Of a DNA stretch of 64,000 bases, positions 16,660 through 40,195 are shown piece after piece. The notes under the pieces are model-generated. The model was given only the letters and a program-made list of their open reading frames with translations, had not been told where the DNA came from and searched no databases. A program made the translations under genes and the position numbers. This stretch comes from Escherichia coli (GTDB lineage Bacteria; Pseudomonadota; Gammaproteobacteria; Enterobacterales; Enterobacteriaceae): assembly GCF_016026235.1 (NCBI RefSeq), contig NZ_CP065613.1. One strand, 5' to 3'. How positions within the stretch are numbered: position 1 is the stretch's first letter; every line of letters starts with the position of its first letter.

Positions 16660-16866
16660 AATGTAGGTCGCATTCGGCACTTATTGTCGGATGCGATGCT
16701 TGCGCATCTTATCCGACCTACGAATCGCATCGAATCTGTAGGCCAGATAAGGCATTTACGCAGCATCCGGCACTTATTGTCGGATGCGATGCTGGCGCAT
16801 CTTATCCGACCTACAAATCGCATCGAACCGTAGGCCGGATAAGGTGTTTACGCCGCATCCGGCAAA
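16660..16866. repeat. REP/BIME cluster, two tandem units of about 93 bp
   Basis: Two direct copies of ...GGCACTTATTGTCGGATGCGATGCT.GCGCATCTTATCCGACCTAC... with imperfect palindromes. Confidence 0.6.
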
Positions 16867-18208: not shown

Positions 18209-18300
18209 TGCTTTTTATACTAAGTTGGCATTATAAAAAAGCATTGCTTATCAATTTGTTGCAACGAACAGGTCATTATCAGTCAAAATAAAATCATTAT
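18209..18300. other. attL: lambda-type core plus phage P' arm
   Basis: GCTTTTTATACTAA core followed by GTTGGCATTATAAAAAAGCATTGCTTATCAATTTGTTGCAACGAACAGGTCA... with Int arm-type site CAGTCAAAAT. Confidence 0.8.
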
Positions 18301-19367
18301 TTGATTTCAATTTTGTCCCACTCCCTGCCTCTGTCATCACGATACTGTGATGCCATGGTGTCCGACTTGTGCCCGAGAAGATGTTGAGCAAACTTATCGC
18401 TTATCTGCTTCTCATAGAGTCTTGCAGACAAACTGCGCAACTCGTGAAAGGTAGGTGGATCCCCTTCGAAGGAAAGACCTGATGCTTTTCGTGCGCGCAT
18501 AAAATACCTTGATACTGTGCCGGATGAAAGCGGTTCACGACGAGTAGATGCAATTATGGTTTCTCCGCCAAGAATCTCTTTGCATTTATCAAGTGTTTCC
18601 TTCATTGATATCCCGAGAGCATCAACATGCAATGTTGTAGGGATGGCAATTTTTACGCCTGTTTTGCTTTGCTCGACATAAAGATATCCATCTACGATAT
18701 CAGACCACTTCATTTCGCATAAATCACCAACTCGTTGCCCGGTAACAACAGCCAGTTCCATTGCAAGTCTGAGCCAACATGGTGATGATTCTGCTGCTTG
18801 ATAAATTTTCAGGTATTCGTCAGCCGTAAGTCTTGATCTCCTTACCTCTGATTTTGCTGCGCGAGTGGCAGCGACCGGGTTTGTTGTTATATGGCCTTCA
18901 GCTATTGCCTCTCGGAATGCATCGCTCAGTGTTGATCTGATTAACTTGGCTGATGCCGCCTTGCCCTCGTCTATGTATCCATTGAGCATTGCCGCAATTT
19001 CTTTTGTGGTGATGTCTTCAAGTGGAGCATCAGGCAGCCCCCTCCTTATTGCTTTAATTTTGCTCATGTAATTTATGAGTGTCTTCTGCTTGATTCCTCT
19101 GCTGGCGAGGATTTTTTCGTAGCGATCAAGCCATGAATGTAACGTAACAGAATTATCACTGTTGATTCTCGCTGTCAGAGGCTTGTGTTTGTGTCCTGAA
19201 AATAACTCAATGTTGGCCTGTATAGCTTCAGTGATTGCGATTCGCCTGTCTCGGCCTAATCCAAACTCTTTACCCGTCCTTGGGTCCCTGTAGCAGTAAT
19301 ATCCATTGTTTCTTATATAAAGGTTAGGGGGTAAATCCCGGCGCTCATGACTTCGCCTTCTTCCCAT
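18297..19367 (-). CDS. int: Integrase (tyrosine recombinase), lambda Int type
   Basis: 356 aa starting MGRRRSHERRDLPPNLYIRNNGYYCYRDPRTGKEFGLGRDRR..., recognised as lambda Int. Confidence 0.95.
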   Translation of the reverse strand: MGRRRSHERRDLPPNLYIRNNGYYCYRDPRTGKEFGLGRDRRIAITEAIQANIELFSGHKHKPLTARINSDNSVTLHSWLDRYEKILASRGIKQKTLINYMSKIKAIRRGLPDAPLEDITTKEIAAMLNGYIDEGKAASAKLIRSTLSDAFREAIAEGHITTNPVAATRAAKSEVRRSRLTADEYLKIYQAAESSPCWLRLAMELAVVTGQRVGDLCEMKWSDIVDGYLYVEQSKTGVKIAIPTTLHVDALGISMKETLDKCKEILGGETIIASTRREPLSSGTVSRYFMRARKASGLSFEGDPPTFHELRSLSARLYEKQISDKFAQHLLGHKSDTMASQYRDDRGREWDKIEIK

Positions 19368-19563
19368 TTCTGATCCTCTTCAAAAGGCTACCTGTTACTG
19401 GTCGATTTAAGTCAACCTTTACCGCTGATTCGTGGAACAAATACTCTCTTCCATCCTTAACCGGAGGAGGGAATATCCTGCACTCGCGTACCCATCGACG
19501 AACTGTTTCAAGGCTCCTTGGGCGTCGCTGGCGTGCGTTCCACTCCTGAAGTGTCAAGTACAT
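19345..19563 (-). CDS. xis: Excisionase
   Basis: 72 aa MYLTLQEWNARQRRPRSLETVRRWVRE..., lambda Xis; overlaps the int start. Confidence 0.9.
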   Translation of the reverse strand: MYLTLQEWNARQRRPRSLETVRRWVRECRIFPPPVKDGREYLFHESAVKVDLNRPVTGSLLKRIRNGKKAKS

Positions 19564-19647
19564 CGCAAAGTCTCCGCAATTACTCGCAAGGGAGCGAGTA
19601 TTGGTTTATTTTCTCCAACAAAAAAGGAGCCGAAGCTCCTTTGATGA

Positions 19648-20271
19648 TTAAAATTCGAATTGTCTCGCCCGAAGGCTTTTCAGCATTGGTTTTGCCCGTT
19701 CGAAAAGGGCGCTTGCTTGGTCAAGTCGTGTCGCCTCCCTTAGCAGTACATCTCTGTTTTTCGTCACCGTGTAAAAAGTTTCAAACGCGATGTCATACAG
19801 CTTGCTCGTGTATGATGAGTTCAGTTCCTTCAATATCGGGTACAGACGTTTGCAGATGTCCTGCGCATTCTCCATCTGTACCTGCATATAGCAAAGGAGG
19901 ATGATTTCTTCGTCTGTGAATTGCTGCGCTGGTTGCATGCTGCGAAGTTTCTTTTCGCACTCGATGAAGTATCGGCGTATCTGGCGGCCTTTTTCGTTAC
20001 GCTCGACCATCGCCGTTTCTTTGGCTGTATCGAGGGTGAGGTGATAGTCTTTGCTACGGCGATCGCCTCCACGTCCTTTGATCCCCCTGTTTTGGTGAAC
20101 CAAAATGTAATCGACATCAACGGCAAAGCCGTATTCTGTTATGCGATTTTTAATCCATGTAGAGAAGTCACGACGTACTTCCAAAAATTCGTGTAAATCA
20201 CGGGCATTAACGAGAAGAGTTGTTTCGTTGGATATAGTGCCGTTGAATACGGGGATGAGTTGACTGGTCAT
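19648..20271 (-). CDS. AntA/AntB-type antirepressor-like protein
   Basis: 207 aa; LLVNARDLHEFLEV...DFSTWIK motif typical of the AntA domain. Confidence 0.45.
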   Translation of the reverse strand: MTSQLIPVFNGTISNETTLLVNARDLHEFLEVRRDFSTWIKNRITEYGFAVDVDYILVHQNRGIKGRGGDRRSKDYHLTLDTAKETAMVERNEKGRQIRRYFIECEKKLRSMQPAQQFTDEEIILLCYMQVQMENAQDICKRLYPILKELNSSYTSKLYDIAFETFYTVTKNRDVLLREATRLDQASALFERAKPMLKSLRARQFEF

Positions 20272-20592
20272 TTTTATGTCCTTTGCATTTGTTCAGATAG
20301 CCCTGTGTTCAGCAGGGCGGTCAGGTACTTGAACACCGTGCAAAGTCGGCCCGTATCCTTAACCTTTCGGCTGTTTTTCGGTATACGCGCTACCCGACCA
20401 TATCTGAAAAATGGACATAAAAAATCCGCATGACTGACGGGTGCGGTTTCCGCTTTGCAAGGTGTGTTCAGCACCATGAAGCGGAATATAGCCCCGTTAA
20501 TGCGGTGTTGTCAAATCATGTAGGCCTTATCTTGCTGTAAGCCGCGCCATTCGGGCTTTTCCCCACATTTGGGGAAAACTATCTTGTCAAAA

Positions 20593-21375
20593 TCATGCAG
20601 CCTTTCGCCCTCCTTCGATGAGTTCCTCTATTTTGTGCACTCCAGCCTCGTTGTACCGAAATGTTTCAACCTGCTTGTCATTGTGCGCCGATTTGTCGAT
20701 GAACCACTTCCCGTACTTTTCTGTTTTGAGCATGTAGGTGTTGGCTATGCGTCCTACCTTGTTGGCTGAAATACCGTAGCGCTGGCCGACTTCCGTAGCA
20801 GAGTAGTAGTGCTCTGAGATAGCTGGCAGAGGTACAACATCGCGACCAACAATCGGGTTGAACACTCCAGCTACTGCTGCCTGCTTTGATTCTGAGGACA
20901 GATTCGGGAACATATTCACCAGTCGATCCGCCACGTTCAAAGCTATTTCCATGGTTCGCGCACGGTCTAGGCTACTTTCTGGTTGCGGTACTGGTTGAGG
21001 ATGGTTGGCAACCTTTTCGCGCTGATTGAAGTAGCCGTCCTCCAGTTTTTCGAACACGTCCCATGCCTGATCCGTTTCGAGCATCTTCGCGTGACGGGCG
21101 GCTCCGCGCTCTGTCCAGAGGATGAGGTGGCGTGCATTTGGGGCAATTTTCACAAAGTAGTTTAAAGCTACTTTGTGTTTTAGCGCGCGCAGCTCGTCAC
21201 CAACGACCTTGTAGAAGTGTACCCCCTCAACAAAGCGCGACTTGTTTTCATGATGGTTTTGCCGGATGCGCACAACATCCGTTCCGTACAACTGCGCCAA
21301 TAGTTCGCTGGTGATGACGTTGGTTTGTTTGTAGGTGATTGGTGAAAGTGTTTCAACAGAAATTTGAGCATTCAT
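20593..21375 (-). CDS. Phage antirepressor (ORF6N-domain protein)
   Basis: 260 aa; N-terminal region paralogous to the ORF at 36834-37520. Confidence 0.55.
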   Translation of the reverse strand: MNAQISVETLSPITYKQTNVITSELLAQLYGTDVVRIRQNHHENKSRFVEGVHFYKVVGDELRALKHKVALNYFVKIAPNARHLILWTERGAARHAKMLETDQAWDVFEKLEDGYFNQREKVANHPQPVPQPESSLDRARTMEIALNVADRLVNMFPNLSSESKQAAVAGVFNPIVGRDVVPLPAISEHYYSATEVGQRYGISANKVGRIANTYMLKTEKYGKWFIDKSAHNDKQVETFRYNEAGVHKIEELIEGGRKAA

Positions 21376-21499
21376 AGCGTCCTCACATTGGCTTTTGCAT
21401 TGAAGAAAGCTTGACGGTGAACTCGCCGTAACGAGTTCAGATAAAAGAAATCCCCGCGAGTGCGAGGATTGTTATTTACCTTTGACGGCAAGTTGCAGG

Positions 21500-22030
21500 T
21501 TAGCCACGGTTAACCTCCTGCGGCGGTTCTGGTAGCTGCATCCAGTGGGTTACCTCTTTGAGATACAGGTCTTCGCCATCACCGTCATCCCAAGTGGGAT
21601 TGCCATCATTAAACCAGTCGCCATATACGCCGACCTGAGTGTTGGGGATGTTTGGTGGGTAGTTGTTTTTAAAGTCAGCTGCTAACACATAGCATTGTCG
21701 CTCTCCCATTTCTGGCATTCGCTCACTACAGCTTATCCAGGCATCCGGAGTTACCGGCACTGGCTGGGCGGTATAAAGCGGTGTTATATCTGCCCGAAAA
21801 TTACATGCTTTATGCAGCCGCACCCACCGTTCGACTTCTGCTTTGTCAGAATACATACCAGTGAACGTGTTATATTCACGGTCAATTTGCGTGAAGGTTA
21901 CCTTCCACGCCACCGGCTCTGCTGTCAGCGATGCCAGAGCAATTTCATAAGCACGGCGTTCAACATTGTCTCGCACATCCAAACTGCTGATACGCTCTTT
22001 GATTTCTTTAATCAGTTCTTTGTCGTTCAC
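21500..22030 (-). CDS. DUF551-like phage protein
   Basis: 176 aa with the characteristic C-terminal VTHWMQLPEPP motif. Confidence 0.5.
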   Translation of the reverse strand: MNDKELIKEIKERISSLDVRDNVERRAYEIALASLTAEPVAWKVTFTQIDREYNTFTGMYSDKAEVERWVRLHKACNFRADITPLYTAQPVPVTPDAWISCSERMPEMGERQCYVLAADFKNNYPPNIPNTQVGVYGDWFNDGNPTWDDGDGEDLYLKEVTHWMQLPEPPQEVNRG

Positions 22031-22102
22031 TTATGCCTCCGATTCCCGGATGTCACCCAAATCAACGCTACAATGCCAACCAGTGCAACGAGCGCAAAAC
22101 TA

Positions 22103-22606
22103 TCAAGCATCTCCAACCTCTTTAACGGTAACTGTCTGTGCCTCCAGTTCTGCTATGCGCTTTTCTGAGGCTTCAAGTAACGCCTGCTTATCGCGTAGCG
22201 CTTCTTCCAGTTCAGCAACATGGCATTCACTATCAATAAGGTTGTTCTCTGCTGCTTCCAGCTCAACACGCAACTTCCCTACCGTTAGCGCAATTTCCTC
22301 GTTCTCCTGATCGCGGCTTTTGATGTATTGCAGGTTTCTTTCCCGTTCATCCAGTAGTGCCAGCGCAACATTTGGATTAAAAGCAGCAATAAATTCAGCG
22401 TTTGCATAAGCCTGAACATCTGTTTCAACCAGGCAGTTAACATGACATTCCGCAATCACACCACCGGGTTCTCCTTTCCATTTTTGACAAACAAAAACTC
22501 CTGTTATATTCCCATGCTGATTGCCCGATGTATGCCCTACGATGTAGCTCCCTTTCGTTGCCTTTTCTGCCGCATCACGCAGTGCCTGATAATTAATTTC
22601 GCTCAC
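22103..22606 (-). CDS. Ead/Ea22-like protein
   Basis: 167 aa; conserved N-terminal domain and coiled-coil C-terminus; position matches lambda ea22. Confidence 0.5.
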   Translation of the reverse strand: MSEINYQALRDAAEKATKGSYIVGHTSGNQHGNITGVFVCQKWKGEPGGVIAECHVNCLVETDVQAYANAEFIAAFNPNVALALLDERERNLQYIKSRDQENEEIALTVGKLRVELEAAENNLIDSECHVAELEEALRDKQALLEASEKRIAELEAQTVTVKEVGDA

Positions 22607-22728
22607 TTCGAACCTCTCTGTTTACTGATAAGCTCCAGATCTGCATTAAGCGCAGCAAAAATCTCTGGTGGTGTGCGCCAGCTGTCGCGATGTTCGGCAG
22701 GAGTATTGCTTCCGGTGAAATCAGTCAT
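22603..22728 (-). pseudogene. Putative remnant of a phage adenine methyltransferase N-terminus
   Basis: 41-codon [36 protein letters not shown]... resembling the Dam-type N-terminus, then stop. Confidence 0.3.
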
Positions 22729-22883
22729 ACAGCCCCCCGTTTATTATTTATCTCCTCAGCCAGCCGCTGTGCTTTCAGTGGATTTCTGATAACAGAAAGG
22801 CCGGGAAATACCCAGCCTCGCTTTGTAACGGAGTAGATGAAAGTGATCGCACCTACCCGGATATTATCGCGAGGATGCTTCAT
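22725..22883 (-). CDS. Small phage protein (lambda orf60a position)
   Basis: 52-aa ORF; start overlaps the exo stop (ATGA), stop overlaps the next start. Confidence 0.3.
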
Positions 22884-32031: not shown

Positions 32032-34938
32032 ATGAGGCCAAGTGAACTTAGCGACCTGCTTTGGGCGCAGGTTGACAGGGTGGCTCCGCACCTGTTGCCA
32101 AATGGCAAGAAAGAGGGGCATGAGTGGGTTGCCGGTAACGTCAACGGTGACAAGGGAAACAGCCTTAAGGTCAACCTTAGCGGCAAGAAAAAATGGGCTG
32201 ATTTCGCTGAGGGAGACGGCGGTGACATGCTTGATTTGTGGATGGCATGTCGTGGAATTAACCTGCATCAGGCTATGCAGGAAGCGAAAGCATTTCTCGG
32301 TATCAAGGATGACGATCACCATTTCGATGCCAGACGTGAGAAGAAATTCTCCAGACCTGATCGCAAGAAAATCGCCCGCTACGTTACCAGAACAGAATCC
32401 CATCTTGAGTACCTGCAATCGCGTGGCATATCGCCAGAAGTCGTAAAGCGCTACGAGGTTGTCAGCGGCAAGGTGTGGAATGGAGAACGAGAACTGGATG
32501 CTCTGGTGCTTCCGTACAAACGCGATGGTGAGTTGTTGCAGGTCAAGCGAATCAGCACTGAGCGCCCGGACGGGAAGAAAGTCATTATGGCAGAAGGTGA
32601 TTGCGAACCTTGTCTGTTCGGATGGCAGGCTCTGGACGCTGGCGTGAGGGCGGTTGTACTTTGCGAAGGCGAAATTGATTGTATGAGCTATGCGCAATAC
32701 GGCATCTCGGCGTTATCCGTGCCGTTTGGTGGCGGGAAAGGCGCTAAGCAACAGTGGATTGAGTTTGAGTATCACAACCTCGACAGGTTTGAGGAAATAT
32801 TCATCTCGATGGACGTTGATGATGTTGGTCGTGAAGCCGCAAGGGAAATCGCAAGCCGACTCGGTGAACATCGTTGCCGTCTTGTTACTCTGCCGTACAA
32901 AGACATCAACGAATGCCTGATGAACGGTGTTACCGAGGATGAAATCTGGCAGTACATCGGCACGGCATCCTACTTTGATCCTGAAGAACTCTACAGCGCG
33001 CGAGAGTTTTACCAGGACACTATCAACGCTTTCTACAGCAAGCAGCAGTATCTGTTTAATCCACCGTGGGAATCTCTGGCAGATAAATTCCAGTTCCGTG
33101 AGGCCGAGTTGACGCTGGTCAATGGTGTGAACGGTCACGGAAAGGCATGCCCACTGAATGAGCCTATTCTTTTAGCTGATGGGACATGGACTACTCACGG
33201 GAATGTAAAAATTGGCGATCAGGTGGCGTCAGTAGACGGCAATCCGTCAACTGTCACTGGGATATTCCCGCAGGGTGTTAGAGATGTTTACCGAGTCACA
33301 TTTGAAGATGGTCGTTATGTTGATTGCGCAGGCGATCACCTATGGGAGGTCACTAGTCGTGGATTCACGAAAGGCGAGAAACGCCGCGTGATAGATACCT
33401 TCGGGTTGAAGCGGTTGAGTGAAACGAAGAGGCACAAAAATGGCGTTAGGATTCCTGAAATAACTGGTGACTTTGGCGACCACTCAGAGCCATTAGCATG
33501 GGTTATCGGCTCCCTTCTCGGGGATGGTAGTCTTAGCAATGGGAGCGTGAAGTTTTCAAACGTCGAGCCATACATGATCGAGCGTATGAAGGCTGAACTG
33601 CCTGATTACAACTTCTCTGGAGATGGTAAGGACTGGCTGATATCAACGGCGCGTGGTCAGGTAAATCCACTCATGGAGACCCTGCGAGGTTATGGACTAA
33701 TGGGGTGCACAGCAAAAAACAAATTCATCCCTCGTGTGTTTTTTTCCGCAAATAAATCAACGCGTATAGGCATGCTGTGTGGTCTGCTTGAAACGGATGG
33801 GTATGTCGAGAAGGATGGAACGCTTGTTTTTTCCTCAGCAAGTGAAGAACTGCGCAATGGGGTTGTTCAACTGGTTAACTCACTCGGCGGGTCATGCCGG
33901 ACGCGAGTTAAAACTGGCGTGACATACACATACAAGGACGATAAGCGGCATGGGATGGATTCATACGAGGCAAGAATCAGACTGACAAGAGAAATCAGGG
34001 AGGCCATCCGTTCACCACGACTCAATGGCAGATTAACTGCGCATCGATTCGAGGGCTGTGGGGTATTCGTCAGGAATGTTGAAAAAATCGGCAATGCAGA
34101 ATGCTTGTGTATTATGGTCGATCACCCTCGCCACCTGTATGTAACCAGGGGATATGTGGCGACGCATAACACCGAGGTTGTCGGGCATATGGCACTTGAG
34201 GCAATGCGTCAGGGTGTGAAGACGTGCATCGCGTCACTTGAGCTGAAGCCTGGTATTCTCCTTAAGCGCCTTACCCGTCAGGCGACGTGCTGCAAGATTC
34301 CGCCAGTGCTGGAAATTGACTCTGCATTTAAATTTTATGACGAAAGACTTTGGGTGTTTGGCCTGACCGGAACGGCGAAAGCCGACAGGCTGATCGAAAT
34401 ATTCGACTACGCTCGCCGCCGATACGGGATCCAGTTATTCATCATCGACAGCCTGATGAAATGTGGCATAGGCGACGATGACTATAACGGGCAGAAGGCG
34501 TTTGTTGACTCGATTTGCGACTTCAAAAACAAAACAAACTCCCACGTCATTCTCGTTACTCACTCGCGAAAAGGAGACAGCGAAGAAAAACCAACCGGGA
34601 AAATGGACGTAAAAGGCTCTGGAGCGATAACAGACCTGACAGACAACCTTTTCATCATCTGGCGTAACAAGGCTCGCGAGAGAGCGTTACAGAGAGTTCA
34701 GAGTGGTGAAAAGATGTCAGAGAAGGACGAACAGCTACTGGCATCTCCGGCATCTGTTTTAATGCTTGAAAAACAACGTAACGGCGAAGGTTGGGAAGGT
34801 GGTGTCCCGTTGTTCCTTGACGAGCAATCGCACCAGTTCCTGCAACTTGAATCAGGATCGCCATATAGCTACATCGCCAATATGCCGAAATCGGAATATG
34901 ACGAGGCGTGGCGACAGGAAAACGTGACGGAGTATTAA
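32032..34938 (+). CDS. Primase-helicase (toprim primase plus DnaB-like helicase) containing an intein
   Basis: 968 aa; toprim motifs (VVLCEGEIDCMS, FISMDVDDVG); helicase P-loop GVNGHGKA and Walker B-like LFIIDSL; intein inserted after GKA. Confidence 0.8.
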   Translation: MRPSELSDLLWAQVDRVAPHLLPNGKKEGHEWVAGNVNGDKGNSLKVNLSGKKKWADFAEGDGGDMLDLWMACRGINLHQAMQEAKAFLGIKDDDHHFDARREKKFSRPDRKKIARYVTRTESHLEYLQSRGISPEVVKRYEVVSGKVWNGERELDALVLPYKRDGELLQVKRISTERPDGKKVIMAEGDCEPCLFGWQALDAGVRAVVLCEGEIDCMSYAQYGISALSVPFGGGKGAKQQWIEFEYHNLDRFEEIFISMDVDDVGREAAREIASRLGEHRCRLVTLPYKDINECLMNGVTEDEIWQYIGTASYFDPEELYSAREFYQDTINAFYSKQQYLFNPPWESLADKFQFREAELTLVNGVNGHGKACPLNEPILLADGTWTTHGNVKIGDQVASVDGNPSTVTGIFPQGVRDVYRVTFEDGRYVDCAGDHLWEVTSRGFTKGEKRRVIDTFGLKRLSETKRHKNGVRIPEITGDFGDHSEPLAWVIGSLLGDGSLSNGSVKFSNVEPYMIERMKAELPDYNFSGDGKDWLISTARGQVNPLMETLRGYGLMGCTAKNKFIPRVFFSANKSTRIGMLCGLLETDGYVEKDGTLVFSSASEELRNGVVQLVNSLGGSCRTRVKTGVTYTYKDDKRHGMDSYEARIRLTREIREAIRSPRLNGRLTAHRFEGCGVFVRNVEKIGNAECLCIMVDHPRHLYVTRGYVATHNTEVVGHMALEAMRQGVKTCIASLELKPGILLKRLTRQATCCKIPPVLEIDSAFKFYDERLWVFGLTGTAKADRLIEIFDYARRRYGIQLFIIDSLMKCGIGDDDYNGQKAFVDSICDFKNKTNSHVILVTHSRKGDSEEKPTGKMDVKGSGAITDLTDNLFIIWRNKARERALQRVQSGEKMSEKDEQLLASPASVLMLEKQRNGEGWEGGVPLFLDEQSHQFLQLESGSPYSYIANMPKSEYDEAWRQENVTEY
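33148..34170 (+). other. Intein (341 aa) with LAGLIDADG homing-endonuclease domain
   Basis: Starts CPLNEPILLADGTW...IGDQVASVDG, two LAGLIDADG-type blocks (LAWVIGSLLGDGSL, GMLCGLLETDGYV), ends ...VATHN followed by Thr. Confidence 0.75.
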
Positions 34939-34967
34939 ATGACCATCTACATCACTGAGCTTGTAAC

Positions 34968-34998
34968 AGGCCTGCTGGTAATCGCAGGCCTTTTTATT
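34968..34998 (+). terminator. Rho-independent terminator after the primase-helicase
   Basis: Stem AGGCCTGC/GCAGGCCT followed by TTTTTATTT. Confidence 0.5.
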
Positions 34999-35012
34999 TG
35001 GGGGAGAGGGAA

Positions 35013-35291
35013 GTGAACGATAGCTACCGACAGTTTGAAAACTGGTGGTCAAAAGACAAAAGCCAGTTCACAGGAGACGATGAATTAAAAGAGTTTGCCT
35101 GGGTGATATGGCAGGCATCGCGAGCAGCTATTGAACTGGATATCGACTGGCCCGAATCGAATGACGACTTTTGGAAAGATGGTGAAGAAGGTGCTTATGC
35201 GATGGGTTATGAGGATGGGCGTGACAAAACGGTAATTGCAGTAATGAAAGCTATCAGAGCCGCTGGAATTAAAGAGAAGAATTTTCGATGA
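35013..35291 (+). CDS. Hypothetical nin-region protein
   Basis: GTG 35013 with GGGAGAGGGAA upstream (ORF track starts at TTG 34998); acidic, Trp-rich 92 aa. Confidence 0.4.
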   Translation: MNDSYRQFENWWSKDKSQFTGDDELKEFAWVIWQASRAAIELDIDWPESNDDFWKDGEEGAYAMGYEDGRDKTVIAVMKAIRAAGIKEKNFR

Positions 35292-35698
35292 AGCAAACAA
35301 TCTTCCTCCGAACTAAGCAACAACAGCAAGCCGCAATAAATGCCATCCTCTCAACTCCTCTCGATAAAGACAAGCCAGTCACCATCCGCATTACTGACTA
35401 CAAGCGAAATCTTGACCAGAACGCAAAATTTCACGCGATGCTGGCGGATATCGCTCGTCAGGTTCAATGGTGCGGCAAATGGTTAAAACCGGAACAATGG
35501 AAGGTTTTGTTGATCAGCGGTCATGCAGTGGCAACAAAACAGGAAGCTGATGTTTTGCCCGGGCTTGAAGGCGAATACGTCAACATTCGCGAAAGCAGCG
35601 CGCAGATGAGTGTGAAGCGTATGGCAAGTCTGATTGAGTACACGACAGCATGGGCTATTGGTCAGGGTGTCAGATTTACCGACAGGAGGTACGAATGA
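35288..35698 (+). CDS. ninB: NinB recombination protein
   Basis: 136 aa resembling lambda NinB; start overlaps upstream stop. Confidence 0.8.
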
Positions 35699-35871
35699 GA
35701 CGACAGCGACGAAGTATCACCGACATCATCTGCGAAAACTGCAAATACCTTCCAACGAAACGCTCCAGAAATAAACGCAAGCCAATCCCAAAAGAATCTG
35801 ACGTAAAAACCTTCAACTACACGGCTCACCTGTGGGATATCCGGTGGCTAAGACATCGTGCGAGGAAATGA
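35695..35871 (+). CDS. ninE: NinE
   Basis: 58 aa [58 protein letters not shown]. Confidence 0.75.
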
Positions 35872-35914
35872 CAATGGTGCTCGACAAGCCCCGCCGTTCA
35901 GGGCGGGGAAATTG

Positions 35915-36219
35915 TTAAGGATGAGGCTGAATTTCTTCAGGTCGGTATTTTGTTGAGAGATGAGAGATGTCAACTTCTCTCTCTGCTTTTTCAAGACTCC
36001 ATGCCATCTGAAGACGAATCCATGAGGCCGGAGTTCCTCCAAGAACGGCGGCGAGACGAACAGCCATTTCAGGAGAGATTGCCGCATTTCCTGAAACCAG
36101 TCGCTGAACAGTGGAAGGCGCAACATCAAGCGCTCTTGCCAGCTCTCTGATCCCAATATTCTGATCTTCCAGAATATCCGCAATAATTTCTCCTGGATGA
36201 GGGGGTTAAACATCGTCAT
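35915..36219 (-). pseudogene. higA: HigA antitoxin (HTH), frameshifted near its start
   Basis: HTH frame encodes PPHPGEIIADILEDQNIGIRELARALDVAPSTVQRLVSG... but the only start codon is one base out of frame across a C5 run; the 123-aa ORF-track product is the out-of-frame read-through. Confidence 0.6.
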
Positions 36220-36497
36220 TAATGGTAATCCTCGTAGTTAAGAATATAAGCGTCACCGTCACGAAACTCGAAGGTGATCCTCCAGTTACCGGAGACGGAG
36301 ACAGACCACGTATCGGCCCTGTCTCCTTGCAACTGGTGCAGCCTGTAACCGGCAAGGTTAATATCATCAATGATTTCGGCTTGATCTATCACCTGAAGGC
36401 GCATTCTAAGGCGTTTAACATGATTGGGATTTACGCCTGATGCACTTCCAGTTTCAAAGAAACGTTGAAGTCCTTTGTGTTTCCAGCTTTTTATCAT
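36219..36497 (-). CDS. higB: HigB toxin (RelE/ParE superfamily)
   Basis: 92 aa from ATG 36497 with AGGAAACA upstream; MIKSWKHKGLQRFFETGSASGV...GNWRITFEFRDGDAYILNYEDYH matches HigB. Confidence 0.8.
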   Translation of the reverse strand: MIKSWKHKGLQRFFETGSASGVNPNHVKRLRMRLQVIDQAEIIDDINLAGYRLHQLQGDRADTWSVSVSGNWRITFEFRDGDAYILNYEDYH

Positions 36498-36833
36498 GTT
36501 TGTTTCCTGTTGCGTTACGCGAATCATTATAGAGTGTGTTGTGTCATTCGCAACCGTTGGTTTGACAAAAACACATATCCGGGGCTATATTCCCTGAACG
36601 CCAGCAAATCTGGCGTCGGGATTGGCGTCCCGGATATCGAAACGGTGCATAACCGCGCTGGCGGTTTTTTTATGCGCTAAGCACAGTCACATTCGCGATT
36701 TATGGTGGGCTGTGTGGGGGAGTTGAGAGACTCGCCGGATGTTTCGACCGGTTACGCCAACCCTGCACAGTTCACCACCCAGCGATTGGCGTCGCAGGTG
36801 GTGAGTTAAAAACCATCGAAACGCGAGGTCGTT

Positions 36834-37520
36834 ATGACTGTTCAGATTTCTGTCAAAAACCTTTCCCCTGTTACCTATAACCAGATTCCGGTAATCACAA
36901 CTGAGTTGCTTGCCCGCCTTTATGGAACAGAAACAATCCGTATACAGCAGAATCACCATGAAAATAAATCTCGGTTTATTGAGGGAAAGCACTTCTTTAA
37001 AGCTGTTGGTGATGAACTCAGAAATTTGCGACTAGTTTTAAACGAGTCGCAAAATGAGGTGAAAATCTCTCCCAAAACCCGCTCGCTCATCCTCTGGACA
37101 GAACGAGGCGCAGCCCGCCACGCAAAAATGCTCGAAACCGATCAGGCGTGGGAAGTGTTCGAAAAACTGGAAGACTGCTATTTCAGCCAGACTTCGAAAA
37201 GCGCAGGTCATCACGAGAAGAAAACCAGCGAGCTTTCTGCAAAAGATGCAAACAGTCTGGTATGGTTGTGGGATTATGCCAACCGCTCACAGGCATTATT
37301 CCGCGAACTGTATCCGGCGCTAAGACAAATTCAGTCTAACTATTCCGGCAGATGCCACGACTACGGTCATGAGTTCTCGTATGTTATCGGAATGGCGAGA
37401 GACGTTTTAATCAATCACACACGAGATGTTGATATTAATGAGCCAGACGGACCAACGAATCTTTCTGCATGGGTAAGACTTAAGAACAAAGAATTACCTC
37501 CTTCACTACATCACTACTGA
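36834..37520 (+). CDS. ORF6N-domain protein (antirepressor N-terminal domain family)
   Basis: 228 aa; N-terminal 120 aa paralogous to the ORF at 20593-21375. Confidence 0.5.
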
Positions 37521-37587
37521 CAGATTGCCAACGCAACGACCCAGCTTCGGCTGGGTTTTTATTGCTGAATTTTCAATATGAGAGGAC

Positions 37588-37848
37588 ATGACAATGAACG
37601 AGCTGATAAATAGCAACGCCATTAAAATGACCAGCATTGAAATCGCTGAGTTGGTGGGTAAGCGTCATGACAATGTGAAACGTACCATCGAAACGCTGGT
37701 TAAAAGTGGAGTTATCCGGCTTCCTCAAATTGAGGTTTCCGAAAGAATCAATAACTTAGGGTTCAATGTTCAGTACGAGCATTACGTCTTCGAAGGCGAA
37801 CAAGGTAAGCGCGACAGCATTATTGTCGTTGAAGGAGGTGTTGCATGA
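37588..37848 (+). CDS. Rha-like small regulatory protein
   Basis: 86 aa with MTSIEIAELVGKRHDNVKRTIETL motif. Confidence 0.4.
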   Translation: MTMNELINSNAIKMTSIEIAELVGKRHDNVKRTIETLVKSGVIRLPQIEVSERINNLGFNVQYEHYVFEGEQGKRDSIIVVEGGVA

Positions 37849-38615
37849 ATGCCGTAATTATTGCCAACGCAGAAATCGTGCCGATTGAGTTTAATGGCGA
37901 GCGTGTTGTTACGTATCAAATGATTGCTGATATTCACGGGGTTCCAGTAGCCACTATTCAAAATGGCTATGCGCGAAACTCTGAGTATTTCATAGACAGG
38001 GAAGATACATATTTTATTGATTTTCATGAAAATACCTTTAGAAGGGGTTTTGAAATTCCTCCTCGTGGCATGCGAGTTTTCACTGAATCAGGCTATTTGA
38101 TGCTGGTTAAAACCCTGCGCGACGAGACGGCGTGGAGAGTGCAACGTGAGCTTGTTCGCAATTATTTTCGTGGCCAAAAAGAAGATAAGTCAGCCTTGCC
38201 CGACTTCACAAACCCTGCTGAAGCCGCCAGAGCGTGGGCAAACGAATATGAGCAGAAAGTGAAGCTGGAGCAACAACTCGCGATTGCCGCACCTAAAGTT
38301 GAGTTTGCCGATCGCGTTGGCGAGGCCAGCGGAATTTTGATTGGAAACTTTGCAAAGGTTGTTGGTATTGGCCCAAACAAACTGTTTGCGTGGATGCGTG
38401 ATCACAAAATCCTTATTGCTTCAGGTTCCCGGCGCAATGTGCCAATGCAGGAATATATGGATCGCGGCTATTTCACAGTGAAAGAAACAGCGGTCAACAC
38501 AAATCACGGAATACAGATATCGTTCACCACAAAAATCACCGGGCGTGGTCAACAGTGGCTGACCAGAAAGCTGCTCGATAACGGAATGCTGAAAGTAACA
38601 GGGGAGGCTGCATGA
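37845..38615 (+). CDS. Phage antirepressor (ORF6N N-terminus plus KilAC-like C-terminus)
   Basis: 256 aa; coupled to neighbouring genes. Confidence 0.55.
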   Translation: MNAVIIANAEIVPIEFNGERVVTYQMIADIHGVPVATIQNGYARNSEYFIDREDTYFIDFHENTFRRGFEIPPRGMRVFTESGYLMLVKTLRDETAWRVQRELVRNYFRGQKEDKSALPDFTNPAEAARAWANEYEQKVKLEQQLAIAAPKVEFADRVGEASGILIGNFAKVVGIGPNKLFAWMRDHKILIASGSRRNVPMQEYMDRGYFTVKETAVNTNHGIQISFTTKITGRGQQWLTRKLLDNGMLKVTGEAA

Positions 38616-40039: not shown

Positions 40040-40114
40040 GGGTCAGTCGTATAAAGGTCATTACGGAAGGCTGTTAACCTTCTTATCGTGGTTCGAGTCC
40101 ACGCTGTCCCGCCA
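40040..40114 (+). tRNA. tRNA-like gene, anticodon GTT (Asn) by manual fold; possibly degenerate
   Basis: Cloverleaf: acceptor GGGTCAG/CTGTCCC (one mismatch), 3-bp D stem, anticodon stem GAAGG/CCTTC with loop CTGTTAA, T arm CGTGG-TTCGAGT-CCACG, 3' CCA. Confidence 0.45.
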
Positions 40115-40119
40115 AATAT

Positions 40120-40195
40120 GCTGGTTTAGCTCTAATGGTAGAGCAGTCGCCTTGTAAGCGAATGGGTAGCGGTTCAAGTCCGTTAACCAGCACCA
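40120..40195 (+). tRNA. tRNA, anticodon TGT (Thr) by manual fold
   Basis: Perfect acceptor stem GCTGGTT/AACCAGC, D arm GCTC-TAATGGTA-GAGC, anticodon loop CTTGTAA, T arm AGCGG-TTCAAGT-CCGTT, 3' ACCA. Confidence 0.55.

Follow-up and report, generated by a model that had tools for sequence, protein, structure and literature searches.

Why does a single prophage carry several genes of the antirepressor families, and what controls them? The question is raised by a 64,000-nucleotide (nt) stretch of Escherichia coli contig NZ_CP065613.1 (hereafter the window), in which an initial annotation had picked out five antirepressor-family open reading frames (ORFs). All five were found, and the domains assigned to them were backed by Pfam. 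Two lie on the minus strand: AntA_207 (19648-20271), with an AntA (92.8 bits) and a P22_AR_C domain (38.6 bits), and ORF6N_260 (20593-21375), with an ORF6N domain (71.5 bits, residues 12-98) and a C-terminal half without a Pfam name. Three lie on the plus strand: ORF6N_228, the nin-region Ant (36834-37520; ORF6N, 75.3 bits; P22_AR_C, 98.6 bits); Rha_86 (37588-37848), which matches only positions 1-27 of the 91 in Phage_pRha (30.3 bits against a cutoff of 29.9); and ORF6N/KilAC_256 (37845-38615), with a weak ORF6N match (41.4 bits) and an ANT/KilAC domain (114.8 bits). Judged by sequence comparison, this gene set is best described as four two-domain chimeras and one stump, drawn from a shared domain pool by modular recombination and not by duplication. 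The explanation that we hold to be quite likely is that of a mosaic prophage carrying such domain chimeras together with two RNA-gated ant units of the kind known from P1 immI and Gifsy-1.

The first of these units lies on the plus strand and contains ORF6N_228. A sigma-70 promoter (36562-36591; TTGACA, 18-nt spacer, TATATT; 11 of 12 consensus positions) is followed by an IsrK-type leader RNA (36598-36671; Rfam RF01394, 68.3 bits, cutoff 50), the equivalent of an a1b1 element, which ends in an intrinsic terminator (36651-36671). Between leader and gene lies a C4 antisense RNA (36698-36782; RF01695, 68.7 bits, cutoff 45), and a further intrinsic terminator (37538-37557) closes the unit. Two elements of the C4 RNA, b' GTTTCGA in the hairpin-2 loop (36741-36747) and a' ACGCCAA in the 3' junction (36754-36760), are complementary to targets on both sides of it: a1 TTGGCGT (36622-36628) and b1 TCGAAAC (36637-36643) inside the leader, and a2 TTGGCGT (36786-36792) and b2 TCGAAAC (36816-36822) in the region before the gene (36783-36833), where b2 lies 2 nt 5' of the Shine-Dalgarno sequence GAGG. 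A 35-codon ORF (36702-36809, plus strand) starts at the conserved AUG in the 5' end of C4, at the same position as Gifsy-1 orf45.

The second unit, on the minus strand in the b region, contains AntA_207. Its sigma-70 promoter (20485-20514) has the same hexamers and 18-nt spacer, likewise agrees with 11 of 12 consensus positions, and shares the motif TTTGACAA...CGGGGCTATATTCC with that of the nin unit. The leader (20419-20484) carries a1 TGAACAC (20464-20470) and b1 TGCAAAG (20453-20459) and ends in an intrinsic terminator made up of a hairpin and T-run (about 20419-20446). The c4-type antisense RNA that follows belongs to the sRNA-Xcc1 family (20311-20399; RF02221, 68.3 bits, cutoff 53) and holds b' CTTTGCA in its hairpin-2 loop (20339-20345) and a' GTGTTCA (20330-20336). 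The downstream targets, a2 TGAACAC (20305-20311) and b2 TGCAAAG (20281-20287), fall within 20272-20311, b2 overlapping the ant Shine-Dalgarno sequence AAGGA, and the closing intrinsic terminator lies at 19623-19642. A permissive Rfam search (E<=1) of 19500-21700 gave neither a C4 match on the Xcc1-type RNA nor a second RNA upstream of ORF6N_260. Wholly overlying the leader, its terminator and the Xcc1-type RNA is a 67-codon ORF (20274-20477, minus strand), which ends 2 nt short of the AntA_207 ATG; it probably specifies no functional protein and could, by analogy, be a coupling ORF like Gifsy-1 orf45. In VT2-Sakai, the equivalent annotation is 'orf34', which overlies the isrK/C4 cassette.

Complementarity was sought as exact Watson-Crick stretches, since ViennaRNA duplexfold on cassette parts gave uninformative full-length pairings. 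In both units, each antisense 7-mer had exact complements upstream and downstream of its RNA, and no cross-unit complementarity was found between the nin and b-region recognition elements. The same script applied to P1 recovered the published a and b elements, with b2 over the icd Shine-Dalgarno sequence, and the nin C4 antisense elements occupy the RNA positions of those in P1 c4 (44-50 and 57-63), with matching target offsets. The nin pattern was rarely reproduced by shuffling, whether of the RNA (P = 0.0045) or of its flanks (P = 5e-5).

Among the five genes, only the two that encode a P22 Ant C-terminal domain lie in self-contained RNA-gated units: no target-antisense-target triplet was found upstream of ORF6N_260, Rha_86, or ORF6N/KilAC_256. 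A search for repressor motifs shared by the upstream regions gave no common LexA or CI sites and revealed instead the promoter and RNA-cassette architecture common to the two P22_AR_C genes. The window has just three perfect LexA boxes (CTGT-N8-ACAG), at 6662, 26812, and 26829, and LexA control was rejected, as none of these is near any of the five genes. Control by CI was rejected likewise: within the prophage, ATAAC-N4-GTTAT occurs only at OR and OL. The multiple induction-control inputs suggested earlier are therefore partly borne out, in the form of two independent antisense-RNA-gated units with non-overlapping recognition sequences and do not extend to the other three genes, which have neither a gate nor LexA or CI sites.

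That all five genes are working antirepressors, and thus five separate induction inputs, is a reading to which the annotations lend some color. Every one of the five matches a PHROG family labelled anti-repressor, including PHROG 377 ('anti-repressor Ant', E = 4e-90) for AntA_207 and PHROG 1726 ('anti-repressor', E = 4e-91) for ORF6N_260, and the KilAC part of ORF6N/KilAC_256 is 54% identical to P1 Ant1. Such labels, however, are annotation by similarity and not functional evidence, and NCBIfam had no name for four of the five proteins. Rha_86, moreover, is a stump; Roi, the protein to which it and its neighbor are related, is described as a DNA-binding protein that affects lytic growth and not as a repressor binder (PMC3430580, PMC4587872); the RNA gate typical of ant genes is present at only two of the five; and no LexA box or CI operator is near any. 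We therefore consider five working antirepressors unlikely. AntA_207 and ORF6N_228 are probable true antirepressors. Residues 125-228 of ORF6N_228 are 87.5% identical to the C terminus of P22 Ant (tblastn, the match being limited to those residues), identity of the whole protein is 73% with VT2-Sakai 'ant' and 81% with the CP-1639 ant, and 162 of 225 residues agree with gp43 of phage Stx2a_F451; AntA_207 shares 173 of 204 residues with gp06 of the same phage. The homologue in phi24B agrees with P22 Ant at 82% of its last 104 residues. Its deletion lowered a late-promoter (pR') reporter after norfloxacin to 27-56% of wild type, and complementation largely restored the output (PMC3064807). ORF6N_260, which sits distally in the leftward (PL) early operon and has a C-terminal half 66% identical to that of F451 gp08 (the N-terminal half of gp08 being different), and the products of Rha_86 and ORF6N/KilAC_256, two genes that adjoin each other, are more probably accessory DNA-binding proteins of the Roi type than dedicated antirepressors.

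The latter two genes together are a rebuilt roi, in which a new ORF6N domain has been fused to the roi KilAC domain. The Rha-like protein of the initial annotation does contain a Rha-type match but is not encoded by an intact gene: Rha_86 is the N-terminal stump of a roi product, with 75% identity to VT2-Sakai Roi over residues 1-81 of the latter, and the Rha_86 homologue in E. coli FDAARGOS_943 is annotated by the Prokaryotic Genome Annotation Pipeline (PGAP) as a pseudogene without a C terminus. Roi 111-242 and residues 125-256 of ORF6N/KilAC_256 share 90% identity. In DNA comparisons, window positions 36576-37831 align with the ant-roi DNA of Sakai and homology restarts at 38250, so that 418 bp (37832-38249, plus strand) stand in place of 119 bp of roi, with breakpoints defined by blastn against VT2-Sakai, CP-1639, and PA28. 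The insert carries its own Shine-Dalgarno sequence (GGAGG), ATG, and ORF6N domain, and the Rha_86 stop codon overlaps the next ATG (ATGA). The architecture of Roi, a single protein of about 242 residues with a Rha-type N-terminal and a KilAC C-terminal part, was not found here, the two parts lying in separate ORFs.

If the RNA cassettes recognize the targets that flank them, then targets and antisense elements should have changed together among related phages. Across five C4 cassettes they did so, with a and b reassorting independently: b' GTTTCGA and a' ACGCCAA in the window correspond to GGTAG.. and GTGCTAA in FDAARGOS_943, GGTTTC and ACGCCAA in VT2-Sakai, CCTTTTTC and ACGCCAA in PA28, and GTTTCGA and GTGCTAA in F451. 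A model-free search for 7-mer triplets (target, antisense, target) was made in the 300-340 nt upstream of viral-contig homologues. For the AntA_207 type, 35 of 41 distinct upstream regions contained at least one triplet and 29 at least two (shuffles with at least one, 1.7%), with 12 Shine-Dalgarno-proximal specificities; for the ORF6N_228 type, the corresponding counts were 37 and 13 of 41 (shuffles, 1.4%), with 8 distal specificities. The recognition pair TTGGCGT plus TCGAAAC was seen among these 41 regions only in this element's own contig. Identity to the window reaches 100% over ORF6N_228 and over AntA_207 residues 1-102 in IMG/VR contig UViG_2537561977_000031 (23,390 nt), whose source is probably the same genome or one nearly identical to it. 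Rfam analysis of 20 representative AntA-type loci placed the end of an sRNA-Xcc1 about 40 nt before the ATG in 15 and showed isrK plus C4 in its stead in 2; the two RNA classes are therefore interchangeable before AntA-type genes. Some phages carry two Xcc1-type cassettes in tandem (Stx2a_F451, 3690-3775 and 4226-4315; also L037, L052, and L056), one of them before a truncated ant, which suggests turnover cassette by cassette.

The same data bear on whether the cassettes regulate the downstream gene at all. They might be chance matches, or trans-acting small RNAs (sRNAs) with host targets: sRNA-Xcc1 has been described as a trans-acting integron sRNA and lies upstream of symE in Xanthomonas (bioRxiv 10.1101/2025.06.18.660453), and IsrK was first tied to virulence conditions. 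Yet the targets stand at fixed distances on either side of the RNA, reach into the ant Shine-Dalgarno sequence, and covary through 12 and 8 specificities in the two gene types, and the geometry is identical to that of P1 c4, for which the mechanism is established. Elsewhere in the 64-kb window no other paired targets were found, although there may be additional host targets. We regard it as rather improbable that the cassettes leave the adjoining gene unregulated, and we retain the RNA-gated reading of both units.

How do these units compare with known systems? In P1 and P7, immI has the order a1 b1 - c4 - a2 b2 - icd - ant1/2 (RF01695, RF03163), and the mechanism of c4 is that of Citron & Schuster 1990, summarised in PMC12197685. 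The nin C4 scores 68.7 bits, against 68.8 for P1's own c4, and, as in P1, duplicate targets stand on both sides at matching distances, with b2 beside or over the Shine-Dalgarno sequence of the ORF that comes first downstream. In the b-region unit, the P1 immI layout recurs with another RNA family, Xcc1. In contrast to P1, the downstream protein combines ORF6N or AntA with P22_AR_C and is not a KilAC-containing Ant1, there is no icd homologue and no C1-type operator at the promoter, and the element that houses the units is no plasmid prophage but a lambdoid one, whose CI looks cleavable. The isrK-orf45(STnc1160)-anrP-isrJ locus of Gifsy-1 and its mechanism (Hershko-Shalev et al. 2016, PMC4825925) provide a second model: here too, a promoter, a terminated IsrK RNA, presumed read-through over a small ORF and a putatively processed RNA, an antirepressor-like gene, and a terminator follow one another, close to Q within a lambdoid prophage. 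Among Shiga toxin (Stx) phages (phi24B, VT2-Sakai, 933W-type; Fogg 2011, PMC3064807; Smith 2012, PMC3430580), the nin region is known for its ant-roi pair (PMC3430580); the pair occupies the same place, after ninB and before Q, with ant preceding roi and the same isrK/C4 cassette upstream, except that roi is split here by the 418-bp replacement that adds an ORF6N domain. The P22 immI Ant (with Arc, Mnt, and sar RNA) shares P22_AR_C with ORF6N_228 and AntA_207, yet neither P22_AR_N, arc or mnt genes, nor a sar-type antisense arrangement occurs here, and the predicted regulation is of c4 type. Nor do the units resemble LexA-controlled antirepressors (Gifsy GfoA/GfhA, 186 Tum, N15 AntC type), there being no LexA box at the gene promoters. 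The nin unit thus belongs to the P1-immI/Gifsy-isrK kind of module and to the Stx-phage ant-roi block, and the b-region unit is of the same kind with an Xcc1-class RNA. The pattern of five recurs in Stx2a_F451 (NC_049924), where five features annotated as antirepressors are divided between the same two clusters, with two Xcc1 RNAs in the b region and one isrK/C4 in nin; F451 differs from the window in its integrase and attachment site, its intact roi, its recognition elements, and the presence of stx2.

By what route did the gene set come together? The region is a single lambdoid prophage of mosaic, Stx-phage-like make-up that occupies the attachment site of lambda. It adjoins ybhC, the lambda attachment locus, and has genes for a lambda-type integrase (18297-19367, minus strand) and an excisionase, after which come Ead/Ea22, DUF551, Exo, Bet, and Gam. 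A CIII thermoregulator RNA (24951-25009) is followed by an N-like antiterminator gene, and CI (28077-28814), followed by Cro and CII, looks cleavable by its domain content (helix-turn-helix and Peptidase_S24); both OL and OR match the consensus ATAAC-N4-GTTAT. After an O-like replication gene and a Toprim primase-helicase, NinB and a HigB-type toxin precede the nin-region antirepressor cluster, which is followed by RusA, NinH, Q, two tRNAs, and lysis genes. Coverage of the 17-41.5 kb region by any one phage record or complete E. coli genome did not exceed 57%. Closest to it is the prophage at the same chromosomal site in FDAARGOS_943, which has the same five genes and a different immunity region. 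Of 5426 complete E. coli genomes, 2113 contain pieces of the b module, 1815 contain pieces of the nin module, and two have the exact combination. The recombination between prophages proposed in the initial annotation is upheld as mosaicism at the level of modules and domains, supported by the 418-bp replacement in roi, the joining of the P22 Ant C-terminal domain to either ORF6N or AntA, the C-terminal half shared with F451 gp08, and the reassorted RNA elements; it does not hold as a merger of two prophages. Two tandem or merged prophages, each bringing its own antirepressors, might seem to be indicated by a second recombinase-like gene inside the region (30063-31259) and by the high mosaicism relative to every database record. 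That gene, however, is the minus-strand transposase (DEDD_Tnp_IS110 and Transposase_20 domains) of an IS110-family element (30042-31486), not an integrase, and the element cuts the O-like replication gene into 29721-30041 and 31487-31924. With a single integrase, a single CI/Cro/OR/OL set, and a single Q-lysis region, and with the same b-region and nin-region layout in the single phage record of F451 and at the same site in FDAARGOS_943, a two-prophage origin is very hard to credit.

The near-identical N termini reported for ORF6N_260 and ORF6N_228 reflect genuine homology, which pairwise alignment showed to span the ORF6N domain (BLASTP E = 4e-61; 84 of 115 aligned residues) and not merely a short low-complexity stretch, but near-identity overstated it: identity between the domains is 73% for protein and 69.5% for DNA. 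The C-terminal halves of the two proteins are unrelated (18% identical), and the third ORF6N domain, that of ORF6N/KilAC_256, is 28% identical to either of the others. The most conserved 90-100 bp or so of the two domains (21027-21126 and 37095-37190) lie in inverted orientation about 16 kb apart and are a possible short substrate for inversion or gene conversion. A recent duplication within the prophage, with C termini diverging later, could draw on the clear homology of the N-terminal domains and on this better-conserved DNA core (its counterparts at the two FDAARGOS_943 loci are 92% identical), but is rejected as most improbable given a domain DNA identity of just 69.5%, the different C-terminal domains, the closer relatives of each gene (75-100% identical) in other phages and viral contigs, and differing flanks with an RNA cassette at only one of the two genes.

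From the domains, homologies, breakpoints, RNA family matches, complementarity, and covariation set out above, we infer a mechanism with translational repression, RNA processing, and Ant-CI binding as its steps. In each RNA-gated unit, the near-consensus promoter would be constitutive, and most transcripts would end at the leader terminator. Read-through would yield the structured antisense RNA, presenting b' in the hairpin-2 loop and a' in the 3' junction; the tails CCACCC and CCGCCC that follow the closing stem of the antisense RNAs are only suggestive of release by RNase P. In a lysogen, by analogy with P1 c4 and Gifsy-1 IsrK, the antisense RNA would pair with a2 and b2 and keep ant untranslated, and Ant would be produced once ant mRNA exceeded antisense RNA. 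The trigger might be (i) infection of a cell without the matching RNA, (ii) antiterminated PL or PR early-operon transcription reading into the units after induction, or (iii) trans-activation of the IsrK type. Ant would then bind and inactivate CI-type repressors, speeding derepression of its own or co-resident prophages. Because the recognition sequences differ (TTGGCGT/TCGAAAC versus TGAACAC/TGCAAAG), the two units should be independent of each other, forming separate gates, one per early arm (PL side and PR side).

Several observations weigh against this account. A sequence search returned no matches among solved structures related to ORF6N_228 or AntA_207. In Gifsy-1, the short leader RNA activates translation, which makes the sign of the leader's regulation here uncertain. 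The small ORF of the nin unit, unlike its Gifsy-1 counterpart, has 35 codons and stops 25 nt before the ant ATG, so that translational coupling of the orf45 or icd type is uncertain as well. Whereas Rfam c4-a1b1 (RF03163) was found in FDAARGOS_943, VT2-Sakai, CP-1639, PA28, and F451, it was not reported for the window at the gathering score, where the leader, unlike that of P1, matches isrK. Single triplets were also found in 9 of 47 sequences of a coding-region control, and a lone triplet is thus weak evidence. Lastly, the prophage is probably replication-defective, its replication gene being split by the IS110-family element, and the RNA-gated units may then act on other phages only, or not at all.

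With respect to significance, several antirepressor-family genes per prophage are normal for Stx-type lambdoid phages and arise from domain shuffling, the modules themselves being old and common in such phages, and for annotation it matters that the RNA gate is present only at the two P22 Ant C-terminal genes, that one 'gene' is a stump, and that the 67-codon ORF overlies an RNA cassette. Rfam shows no clan for sRNA-Xcc1 (RF02221), and the literature searched treats it as a trans-acting integron sRNA or merely as positioned upstream of genes, so its c4-like logic may so far have gone unrecognised. We see roughly an even chance that sRNA-Xcc1 represents a second structural class among the cis-encoded antisense 'immunity' RNAs of the c4 type, with a1b1/a'b'/a2b2 logic, interchangeable with isrK plus C4 and with at least 12 specificities, and that in Stx-like lambdoid phages one to three RNA-gated antirepressor units, mutually orthogonal and one on each early arm, form arrays that serve as a combinatorial heteroimmunity code for cross-derepression among co-resident or superinfecting phages. 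If Xcc1 does work like P1 c4, recognition 7-mers could be read from sequence and would predict cross-induction and cross-silencing in polylysogens such as enterohemorrhagic E. coli (EHEC) strains with many lambdoid prophages, a prediction that would bear on Shiga-toxin phage induction.

Other features of the prophage and its flank were observed along the way. Between OL and the cI-side genes, a 44-residue ORF (26667-26801, minus strand) has two adjacent perfect LexA boxes (26812-26827 and 26829-26844) directly 5' of its Shine-Dalgarno sequence and ATG, has terminators on both sides, and matches PHROG 21154 (unknown function, E = 2e-31). Its homologues by tblastn and protein-homologue search were confined to three phage records (SH2026Stx1-type) and three unnamed protein clusters (Klebsiella, E. 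coli); we regard it as a candidate SOS-controlled small gene of the immunity region. A Toprim/AAA_25 primase-helicase of 968 residues (32032-34938, plus strand) contains an intein with Hint and LAGLIDADG homing-endonuclease domains at roughly residues 379-634 or beyond, and genes of equal length are present in Stx2a_F451 and FDAARGOS_943. The HigB-type toxin gene is intact (36219-36527, minus strand) and is followed by a higA antitoxin gene that is out of frame (region 35900-36527): the frame that has an ATG reads MTMFNP and leaves frame at a C5 run (~36200-36204), and the HigA-like frame (PPHPGEIIADILEDQNIGIRELARAL...) has no start codon, the disruption being either a genuine frameshift or a homopolymer sequencing error. 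In the chromosomal flank beside ybhC lies a naRNA4/REP-type element (16741-16811, plus strand). The two tRNAs, tRNA-Asn(GTT) and tRNA-Thr(TGT) (40040-40195, plus strand), stand between Q and the lysis genes, the site occupied by tRNAs and stx in Stx phages.

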